From a virus (Duplodnaviria; Heunggongvirae; Uroviricota; Caudoviricetes): DNA of 3,473 bases. Position 1 is the first letter of the stretch, and each line of letters opens with the position of its first letter. The translations under genes were made by a program, and so were the position numbers. The stretch is from IMG/VR virus record IMGVR_UViG_2526164609_000025; one strand, 5' to 3'. This document shows positions 1,267 through 2,775 of this stretch, one piece after another. Under the pieces are notes generated by a model that did not search any database, was not told where the DNA came from, and worked only from the letters and a program-made list of their open reading frames with translations.

Positions 1267-1428
1267 TTAAATACTCGCTACGTTATACCAGGTGCCATTA
1301 ATCAGTTTTTGCAGCGGTCGGTAATACACACCGTTGACGTTATCCGCTGAGTTACGGCCGGTATCCGATATCGATATCCCTGACAATCCGTGTCCGGCAG
1401 GTGCGCGAAATCTCCACGAAACGGTGTT
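1267..1428 (-). pseudogene. 3' fragment (53 codons plus stop) of an upstream gene, probably a tail-fibre/receptor-binding protein, truncated at the IS911-like left end
   Basis: Minus-strand frame is open from the IS boundary at 1428 to TAA at 1269-1267 (NTVSWRFRAPAGHGLSGISISDTGRNSADNVNGVYYRPLQKLINGTWYNVASI*). Stop sits 2 nt before the tfa ATG, the usual fibre-then-chaperone coupling. No family-level similarity recognised, so identity is inferred from position only. Confidence 0.4.
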
Positions 1429-1464
1429 TGAAGTGGCACACTGAATTTGGCCACCTGAACAGAG
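1429..1464 (+). repeat. IS911-like left terminal inverted repeat (IRL)
   Basis: 36 nt; 24/36 identical to the reverse complement of the right end, with perfect outer 8 nt (TGAAGTGG) and a conserved TGGCCACC block. Confidence 0.7.
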
Positions 1465-1500
1465 GTGATATGCTCACCTCAGAACAACACAGGTGCTCCA

Positions 1501-1752
1501 ATGAAAAAAAGAAATTTTAGCGCAGAGTTTAAACGCGAATCCGCTCAACTGGTTGTTGACCAGAAATACACGGTGGCAGATGCCGCCAAAGCTATGGATG
1601 TTGGCCTTTCCACAATGACAAGATGGGTCAAACAACTGCGTGATGAGCGTCAGGGCAAAACACCAAAAGCCTCTCCGATAACACCAGAACAAATCGAAAT
1701 ACGTAAGCTGAGGAAAAAGCTACAACGCATTGAATGGAGAATGAAATATTAA
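1501..1752 (+). CDS. IS911-like transposase OrfA (helix-turn-helix DNA-binding subunit), 83 aa as encoded; C-terminus apparently altered by a frameshift
   Basis: ATG at 1501 preceded by AGGTG; [83 protein letters not shown]. Matches recalled IS911 OrfA up to ...LQRIE, then diverges and stops at 1750-1752. The ORF-track start at 1465 (MICSPQ...) is an upstream in-frame extension. Confidence 0.85.
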
Positions 1753-2668
1753 AAAAGGCTACCGCGCTCTTGATGTCAGACTCCCTGAACAGTTCTCGAT
1801 AATCGGGAAACTCAGAGCGCATTATCCTGTGGTCACACTCTGCCAAGTGTTCGGGGTTCATCGCAGCAGCTACAGATACTGGAAAAACCGTCCTGAAAAA
1901 CCAGACGGCAGACGGGCTGTATTACGCAGTCAGGTACTTGAGCTACATGGCATCAGCCATGGTTCGGCCGGAGCAAGAAGCATCGCCACAATGGCAACCC
2001 GGAGAGGCTACCAGATGGGACGCTGGCTTGCTGGCAGGCTCATGAAAGAGCTGGGGCTGGTCAGCTGTCAGCAGCCGACTCACCGGAATAAACGTGGTGG
2101 TCATGAACATGTTGCTATCCCTAACTACCTTGAAAGGCAGTTCGCCGTGACCGAGCCAAATCAGGTGTGGTGCGGTGATGTGACCTGTATCTGGACGGGT
2201 AAGCGCTGGGCGTACCTCGCCGTTGTTCTCGACCTGTTCGCAAGAAAACCAGTGGGCTGGGCCATGTCGTTCTCGCCGGACAGCAGGCTCACCATGAAAG
2301 CGCTGGAAATGGCATGGGAAACCCGTGGTAAGCCCGGCGGGGTGATGTTCCACAGCGATCAGGGCAGTCATTATACGAGCAGGCAGTTCCGGCAGTTATT
2401 GTGGCGATACCAGATCAGACAGAGTATGAGCCGGCGCGGAAACTGCTGGGATAACAGCCCAATGGAACGCTTCTTCAGGAGTCTGAAGAACGAATGGATG
2501 CCGGTGGTGGGTTACGTAAGCTTCAGCGAGGCAGCTCACGCCATAACGGACTATATCGTTGGATATTACAGCGCACTAAGACCGCACGAATATAACGGTG
2601 GGTTACCCCCAAACGAATCGGAAAATCGATACTGGAAAAACTCTAACTCGGTGGCCAGTTTTTGTTGA
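1748..2668 (+). CDS. IS911-like transposase OrfB (DDE catalytic domain), normally expressed as OrfAB fusion by -1 frameshifting
   Basis: Frame open from ATT at 1748-1750 (IS911 OrfB is known to initiate at an AUU codon) to TGA at 2666-2668. Catalytic residues in WCGDVTCIW (D), [12 protein letters not shown] (D) and [18 protein letters not shown] (E). ORF track lists the GTG-initiated part 1829..2668. Confidence 0.85.
1751..1757 (+). promoter_or_regulatory. Programmed -1 ribosomal frameshift heptamer A-AAA-AAG of the IS911-like element
   Basis: AAAAAAG at 1751-1757; the -1 frame continues open into the DDE transposase ORF ([44 protein letters not shown]...). Standard IS3-family motif. In this copy the zero frame of the heptamer is not the frame of orfA. 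Confidence 0.7.
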
Positions 2669-2676
2669 CCACTTCA
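2641..2676 (+). repeat. IS911-like right terminal inverted repeat (IRR)
   Basis: Reverse complement TGAAGTGGTCAACAAAAACTGGCCACCGAGTTAGAG pairs imperfectly with IRL. Confidence 0.7.
2665..2670 (+). promoter_or_regulatory. Outward-facing -35-like hexamer TTGACC inside the IS911-like IRR
   Basis: TTGACC ends 6 nt from the IS tip. In IS911 the IRR -35 pairs with a -10 in IRL at circle junctions. No good -10 at the appropriate spacing in the present flank (TCGCTT at about 2688-2693). Confidence 0.3.
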
Positions 2677-2775
2677 TACCTGACACATCGCTTCAATGGG
2701 AAATTGTTGTCGCCATTGTTCGATTAACGCGTATTTTTCAGCGACTCCTGTGCAAAATACGCTGTTGCTTTTTTT
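2677..2775 (-). pseudogene. IS600-like orfB, 5' fragment (about 33 codons), truncated by the IS911-like element
   Basis: The -1 frame downstream of the A7 run is open to the IS911-like boundary and shows the ...YALIEQW..FPIEAMCQV motif; remainder of orfB (DDE domain) is absent from the window. Confidence 0.6.

Follow-up and report, generated by a model that had tools for sequence, protein, structure and literature searches.

IS911 and the sequences on its two sides

The DNA analyzed here is a 3,473-nt stretch of the virus record IMGVR_UViG_2526164609_000025 (the window). It carries a copy of the insertion sequence (IS) IS911, with the 3′ end of a prophage tail-fiber gene on its left and, on its right, a piece of a second element, IS600, which is joined to a stump of the chromosomal gene yfaA. 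All components are known elements, namely IS911, IS600, and the remnant of an ipaH prophage (Table 1). The IS911 in the window marks the place where a Shigella chromosome has undergone an IS-associated deletion.

The termini of IS911 read TGAAGTGG from position 1429 and CCACTTCA up to position 2676, and the same ends are present in 24 other IS911 copies of related loci. The terminal inverted repeats (IRL on the left and IRR on the right) are imperfect and of the TG...CA type, matching at 24 of 36 positions. A preliminary description of the window had placed an IS911-like element at 1426–2680; its identity holds, but that span takes in flanking bases. The triplets beside the element are GTT (1426–1428) on the left and TAC (2677–2679) on the right. 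As already stated in that description, they form no target-site duplication, and no repeat of 2–4 bp was found when both boundaries were shifted by −2 to +2 nt. The usual duplication of IS911 and the IS3 family is 3 bp, rarely 4 bp. Other elements at the same locus served as controls and are flanked by duplications: AAA for the sister IS911 between gyrA and yfaA, GTC and TTT for IS600, GTTGC for IS2, and AGTGAAGG for an element of the IS66 family. In the window, no duplication is to be expected if, as proposed below, the two flanks of IS911 derive from two different target sites.

The fiber remnant on the left (53 aa) shows 92–96% identity to the C-termini of Shigella and E. coli phage tail proteins of 410, 461, and 668 aa, in line with the preliminary assignment of everything up to 1428 to the 3′ end of a tail-fiber gene. 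In the intact gene, the sequence continues past the breakpoint, with ACGGTGTT followed by GCTGCC (locus L001) or ACTGCC (strain VL7S7 of enteroinvasive E. coli, EIEC); the intact homologue in L001 lies at 3168–4400. The IS600 piece on the right corresponds to nt 1–414 of the intact 1264-bp element (99.8% identity), and the right 850 nt are missing together with the right inverted repeat of IS600. At the breakpoint, the intact IS600 reads ACACCAAA followed by TACCTGACA. The preliminary description was right about IS600 but located the break in the interior of orfB; it lies only 47 nt beyond the stop codon of orfA, at the 5′ end of orfB, of which ~30 codons are left. The comparison with related genomes that it had suggested located both an uninterrupted fiber gene (L001 and VL7S7) and an intact 1264-bp IS600, and the latter does not naturally carry the fiber sequence.

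On the far side of IS600, the reading frame of the truncated yfaA continues for four codons into the left end of the element, giving an open reading frame (ORF) at 3078–3473. The yfaA stump shares 98.7% identity with the beginning of the uninterrupted gene in VL7S7. This joint, with yfaA cut after nt 383, is common to all Shigella loci retrieved and has no match among 5,426 complete E. coli genomes. The 131-aa fusion ORF across it is annotated as 'PufY' protein' in S. boydii CDC 3083-94. On the prophage side, the protein identical to the 181-aa product of the tail-fiber assembly gene (tfa) is named tail fiber assembly protein in Shigella dysenteriae and, as a multispecies entry, in Shigella. 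EIEC prophages show the same gene order around the second tail-fiber gene. No Rfam family matched the window.

Table 1. Features of the window. HTH, helix-turn-helix.
Feature	Position	Strand	Remarks
Second tail-fiber gene, 5′ part	1–732	minus	phage_tail_N domain, Pfam PF08400, E = 4e-30; extends beyond the left edge of the window
Tail-fiber assembly gene (tfa), 181 aa	719–1264	minus	Pfam Caudo_TAP, E = 7.7e-27
Upstream tail-fiber gene remnant, last 53 codons and stop	1267–1428	minus	Broken at 1428 by IS911; seen in translation
IS911, 1248 bp, both ends present, without target-site duplication	1429–2676	plus	99.6–99.8% identity to other IS911 copies
IS911 IRL	1429–1464	plus	Adjoins the fiber remnant; 24/36 positions agree with the reverse-complemented IRR
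IS911 orfA, shortened to 83 aa	1501–1752	plus	Pfam HTH_Tnp_1; one A lost after 1732
IS911 orfB open frame	1829–2668	plus	DDE integrase core; Pfam rve, E = 1.2e-31, and rve_3
IS911 IRR	2641–2676	plus	Adjoins IS600 nt 414
IS600 nt 1–414: left end, entire orfA (3026 to 2724), start of orfB	2677–3090	minus	99.8% identity; orfA Pfam HTH_Tnp_1
yfaA (DUF2138), chromosomal, first 383 nt	3091–3473	minus	Pfam DUF2138, E = 6.7e-57, profile positions 2–122 of 560

Occurrence in Shigella and the undeleted locus

Related Shigella chromosomes were reached by exact-protein look-up, and the source genomes were compared as 20-kb loci (related loci are numbered L001 onward). The names attached to the identical proteins are S. 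dysenteriae, S. dysenteriae 225-75, and Shigella sp. FC1544, with S. boydii CDC 3083-94 for the yfaA stump. The window is 100% identical to sequence in CP026807, CP026823, CP026825, and AKNG01000053, and 99.8–99.97% identical to CP026834, CP045784, CP026840, CP026842, and CP176669. Two more assemblies (PSSQ01000001 and PSST01000003) carry the same junctions with a 511-bp deletion inside IS911. The whole window is absent from the complete E. coli genomes, and 100-nt probes for its two real junctions gave no spanning match there. In the phage collection, no close relative of the flank with the fiber gene and tfa was found (best match, 46% coverage and 86% identity).

IS911 is multicopy and longer than short reads, and two IS911-containing regions could in principle have been misjoined at the repeat. 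However, at least 11 independent Shigella assemblies contain the two junctions, and several of these are closed chromosomes (CP026807, CP026823, CP026825, CP026834, CP026840, CP026842, CP045784, and CP176669). This recurrence excludes a misassembly, against which the preliminary description had advised a check, and the chance of an artifact is practically nil.

The ipaHa side of the locus was found at 99.6% identity in EIEC, and strain VL7S7 (NZ_CM177009) shows the locus in its undeleted state. Its left side comprises nrdA, yfaL, ubiG, gyrA, an intact yfaA, and a truncated yfaT. The prophage follows in the order integrase, excisionase, early genes, lysis genes, IS911, IS600, spike, baseplate, fiber, tfa, second fiber, DUF4376, and ipaHa, and beyond it lie a yfaT remnant, yfaS, yfaQ, yfaP, and ato. 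Because pieces of yfaT are present on both sides, the prophage is integrated in yfaT. The Shigella locus that holds the window (L004) aligns at 3194–10383 with nrdA to yfaA of VL7S7 and at 12046–20396 with fiber to yfaS, the two blocks being in the same orientation. Between them, the VL7S7 stretch from nt 383 of yfaA to the last 53 codons of the fiber gene measures 30,329 bp, and in Shigella it is replaced by IS600 (nt 1–414) and IS911. What has been lost, in EIEC coordinates, is ~30 kb containing the remainder of yfaA, the truncated yfaT, int, xis, the early, lysis, and baseplate genes, and most of the fiber gene.

These alignments confirm that IS911 marks a rearrangement junction with unrelated flanks, as the preliminary description had proposed. 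A simple insertion does not describe the site: in VL7S7, 30,329 bp separate the two flanks, and one of them is an IS600 truncated within yfaA. The order and orientation of the relative are kept, the breaks are at the ends of the IS, and no duplication is present, as in an IS deletion junction. Of the two outcomes considered earlier, loss or inversion of DNA, only the first is borne out by the collinearity with VL7S7. The net event is read as a deletion and not an inversion, because the genes on either side are arranged and oriented as in VL7S7, and an inversion endpoint would break this collinearity.

The same collinearity bears on the idea that the window shows an inversion or translocation endpoint between two IS911 copies, with the missing DNA lying elsewhere in the genome beside the reciprocal junctions. 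Shigella genomes are heavily rearranged (PMC7373316), and an IS911-to-IS911 inversion is present in a sister genome at this locus (L006, described below). Nevertheless, both flanks follow the undeleted EIEC chromosome, and no N-terminal fiber fragment of ~355 aa, as would be left beside a reciprocal junction, occurred among the top 120 matches to the intact 410-aa fiber protein; this search is a weak one, since fragments may hide inside clusters. We consider such an endpoint very improbable.

The prophage of VL7S7 occupies the same chromosomal site as that of Shigella and shares its right half (fiber, tfa, second fiber, DUF4376, ipaHa, yfaT remnant, and yfaS), with 99.2% identity from the second fiber gene onward. 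It differs in keeping int, xis, the early, lysis, and baseplate genes, and an intact yfaA. The segment with the fiber gene and tfa is only 92% identical to that of Shigella, and this module is mosaic between the lineages. For the middle of the second fiber gene (window 196–743), megablast gave no match to the EIEC homologues, whereas identity is 97–98% over 1–195 and 92–95% over 744–1428. The IS911 inside the VL7S7 prophage (L024, 11218–12466) also lacks a duplication, its flanks being ATC and TAT, and the head and tail-tube genes are gone around it; thus, the EIEC prophage has undergone IS-associated loss as well.

Variable junctions and the route of the deletion

Here, we propose a route for the deletion based on the EIEC comparison and the sister lineages. 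The starting state, as the comparison with VL7S7 shows, was an ipaHa-carrying prophage integrated in yfaT, beside gyrA and yfaA. IS911 would have entered the fiber gene first, so that the junction between IRL and the fiber gene is the original one and the partner of its GTT has been lost. The DNA beside IRR may then have been removed in one or more steps, until the end came to lie inside the IS600 in yfaA. Each removal may have occurred by transposase-driven intramolecular attack from IRR, or by a local second insertion and recombination between the two direct copies. The loss of one A in orfA came later. In the Shigella lineage, IS600 sits at nt 383 of yfaA, the gap from IS600 nt 415 to the fiber remnant is filled exactly by IS911, and both deletion breakpoints coincide exactly with the IS911 termini. 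We put the probability of this route, an insertion and then adjacent deletion in steps beside IRR, at roughly 55%.

It is favored because the IRL junction is constant and the IRR junction is variable across lineages. Every lineage that retains the fiber remnant has the same junction between it and IRL, namely the S. dysenteriae type, the S. boydii type (L003, L006, L008, and L011), and L021. On the other side, IRR adjoins IS600 nt 414 in loci of the window type, nt 383 in those of the S. boydii type (where exactly the 31 bp beside IRR, 2677–2707, are missing), and nt 551 in L010 (CP026839), and the orientation of IS600 relative to IRR is the same in all three. This pattern singles out IRR as the probable active end of IS911. 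A constant end opposite an end whose neighboring DNA shortens step by step has also been reported for IS150, another member of the IS3 family, in the long-term evolution experiment (PMC11708052). A link between distant Shigella clusters through the shared junction was considered and dropped, as the second lineage, of the S. boydii type, is closely related to the lineage of the window. In L021 (position 5236; Shigella contig AERM01000015), the IS911 at the junction is interrupted at its nt 158 by a sequence other than the IS600 of plasmids of enterohemorrhagic E. coli (EHEC). At the same chromosomal site, L005 (CP026866, 10384–13200) shows another large rearrangement, in which the truncated yfaA and IS600 (nt 1–153) are followed by an IS66-family element and then by unrelated chromosomal genes (esterase, NIF3, pyruvate kinase, and zwf), and the prophage remnant is absent.

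Several observations weigh against this route. L010 reads, at 10384–11851, IS600 nt 1–26, IS911 from IRL to IRR, IS600 nt 551 down to 359, IS1, and the 3′ part of tfa; its block of IS911 and IS600 is thus inverted and the fiber junction is gone, so that descent from the same ancestral copy is an assumption. The order 551 to 414 to 383 would follow from the nesting of the breakpoints and not from a phylogeny. The first step that the route predicts, IS911 in an intact fiber gene with a GTT duplication, was not found in the E. coli genomes or among the GTDB representatives. A precursor probe of IRR, GTT, and fiber sequence had no match in the former. Exact-pattern scans of the latter, a collection unlikely to include Shigella, for the precursor junctions returned nothing. 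Finally, recombination between two IS911 copies in direct orientation would leave an identical end product.

The latter route is a serious possibility, although we place it short of even odds. Two insertions of IS911 in direct orientation, one between nt 414 and 415 of IS600 and one in the fiber gene, would have been followed by RecA-dependent recombination that deleted ~30 kb and left one hybrid copy. It predicts the product as seen: DNA is lost overall, the IS ends are exact, and there is no duplication. Shigella genomes contain multiple copies of IS911 (PMC7373316), and a related EIEC prophage carries both IS911 and IS600 within the interval that is deleted in Shigella. Exchange between IS911 copies is also demonstrated at this locus: in L006 (CP026762, 8720–14464), the segment between two inverted IS911 copies, containing the truncated yfaA, the truncated IS600, and the IS66-family element, lies in the opposite orientation to that in L003, L008, and L011, and the swapped flanks of the two copies point to a clear case of IS911-by-IS911 recombination. 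On the other hand, the three IRR breakpoints would each demand a separate insertion into IS600, unless later adjacent deletions are added. Moreover, neither the E. coli genomes nor the GTDB representatives yielded a contiguous junction of IS600 and IS911 at nt 414 together with a TAC duplication. A probe of IS600 ending in AAATAC and joined to IRL gave only two-piece matches among the five listed, with the two IS 250–650 bp apart; the one inspected was a complete IS600 beside a complete IS3-family element. Plasmids of the EHEC/O26 type, the best whole-window matches with IS911 and IS600 within 2518 bp, were considered as the intact nested ancestor and rejected for their opposite nesting: in these plasmids, of which there are many (L023, e.g. 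NZ_CP027386, 2501–5018), IS600 is inserted into IS911 at ~nt 158.

In a third scheme, IS911 would have been captured in one step at a DNA break as the ~30 kb deletion formed, without target cutting by the transposase and hence without a duplication. Such capture has been proposed for one IS5 and one IS481 event (PMC11708052), and an IS lying exactly in the middle of a deletion without a duplication fits it. In the long-term evolution experiment, 14 of 68 events of IS150, a member of the IS3 family, were associated with deletions of 14 bp to 48.9 kb, none of the 14 had a duplication, and all were explained by insertion, adjacent deletion, and extension (PMC11708052). As the multi-step route covers all of these IS3-family cases (PMC11708052), no observation demands capture here, and the nested IRR breakpoints of the sister lineages indicate several steps. 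We regard capture as hardly credible. Even when it is pooled with a milder version, in which the breakpoints at IS600 nt 551, 414, and 383 would record, in nature, how the transposase trimmed DNA step by step from one end of IS911, the chance assigned stays slight.

The preliminary description had named adjacent deletion and two-copy recombination as the simplest causes, and as a pair they are supported. The two are not rigorously separable from the sequence alone, and the junction pattern leans to stepwise adjacent deletion.

State of the element and relation to known systems

By nucleotide identity, the element in the window is IS911 (99.6–99.8% over 1248–1249 bp against the copies at the Shigella loci and in VL7S7, the latter annotated as 'IS3-like element IS911 family transposase'). 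It shares with the known IS911 (IS3 family, IS3 group) the imperfect TG...CA repeats, orfA with its helix-turn-helix domain, orfB with its DDE rve domain in the −1 frame, and the A AAA AAG slip site, and differs in the absent 3-bp duplication and in one A missing from orfA. This A is lost after 1732 (GAAATGG to GAATGG, region 1729–1757), and the resulting orfA stop at 1750–1752 overlaps the A6G slip site at 1751–1757. In an alignment of orfA from 10 distinct IS911 copies, the A is present in seven and missing in the window, L009, and L018. When it was put back in silico, OrfA was 100 aa long and a −1 slip gave an OrfAB of 389 aa; the window copy yields 83 aa instead of this frameshift product. 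The 1-nt loss therefore leaves this IS911 unable to supply its own OrfAB transposase. The sister genomes CP045784, CP026840, and CP176669 retain the A, so the loss is recent. The copy is a defective member of IS911 and not of a different family, and it is now a fixed fossil. In L007 and L016 (PSSQ01000001 and PSST01000003), the 511-bp internal deletion of the same IS911 (equivalent to window 1753–2263) begins inside the A6G slip site.

Deletion junctions that hold an IS but lack a duplication are a textbook outcome of IS activity, described for Shigella in general terms (PMC7373316 and PMC11708052), and the finding is an already known phenomenon, an ordinary scar in IS-rich Shigella genomes. 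What is added here is the amount of DNA lost (~30 kb), the genes that were lost, and the likely active end, the IRR side. The locus documents one Shigella ipaH prophage that was cut down to its tail-fiber and effector end and fixed, with the integrase, excisionase, and structural genes gone, and it records the route by which yfaA and yfaT were lost. It could act as a lineage marker within the S. dysenteriae/S. boydii group, and could be a small natural example of an IS3-family deletion growing stepwise. Beyond such bookkeeping, it has little significance and fits the established view that IS activity has reduced Shigella genomes.

Five IS (IS1, IS2, IS4, IS600, and IS911) have expanded throughout Shigella, where IS600 and IS911 are a known source of deletions (PMC7373316). 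The IS types and organisms in that account of genome reduction are the same as here, and so is the consequence, gene loss by deletion between or next to IS copies. The junction described here, running from the truncated yfaA through IS600 and IS911 to the fiber remnant, is not mentioned in PMC7373316 or PMC11708052, and is a further instance and not a new process. The adjacent deletions of IS150 (PMC11708052) resemble it in having an IS3-family element exactly at the deletion junction and no duplication; they begin small and are extended later, and the nested IRR breakpoints in Shigella look alike. Their steps were watched over time, whereas those in Shigella are inferred from sister lineages, and the largest of these would have reached ~30 kb into the prophage.

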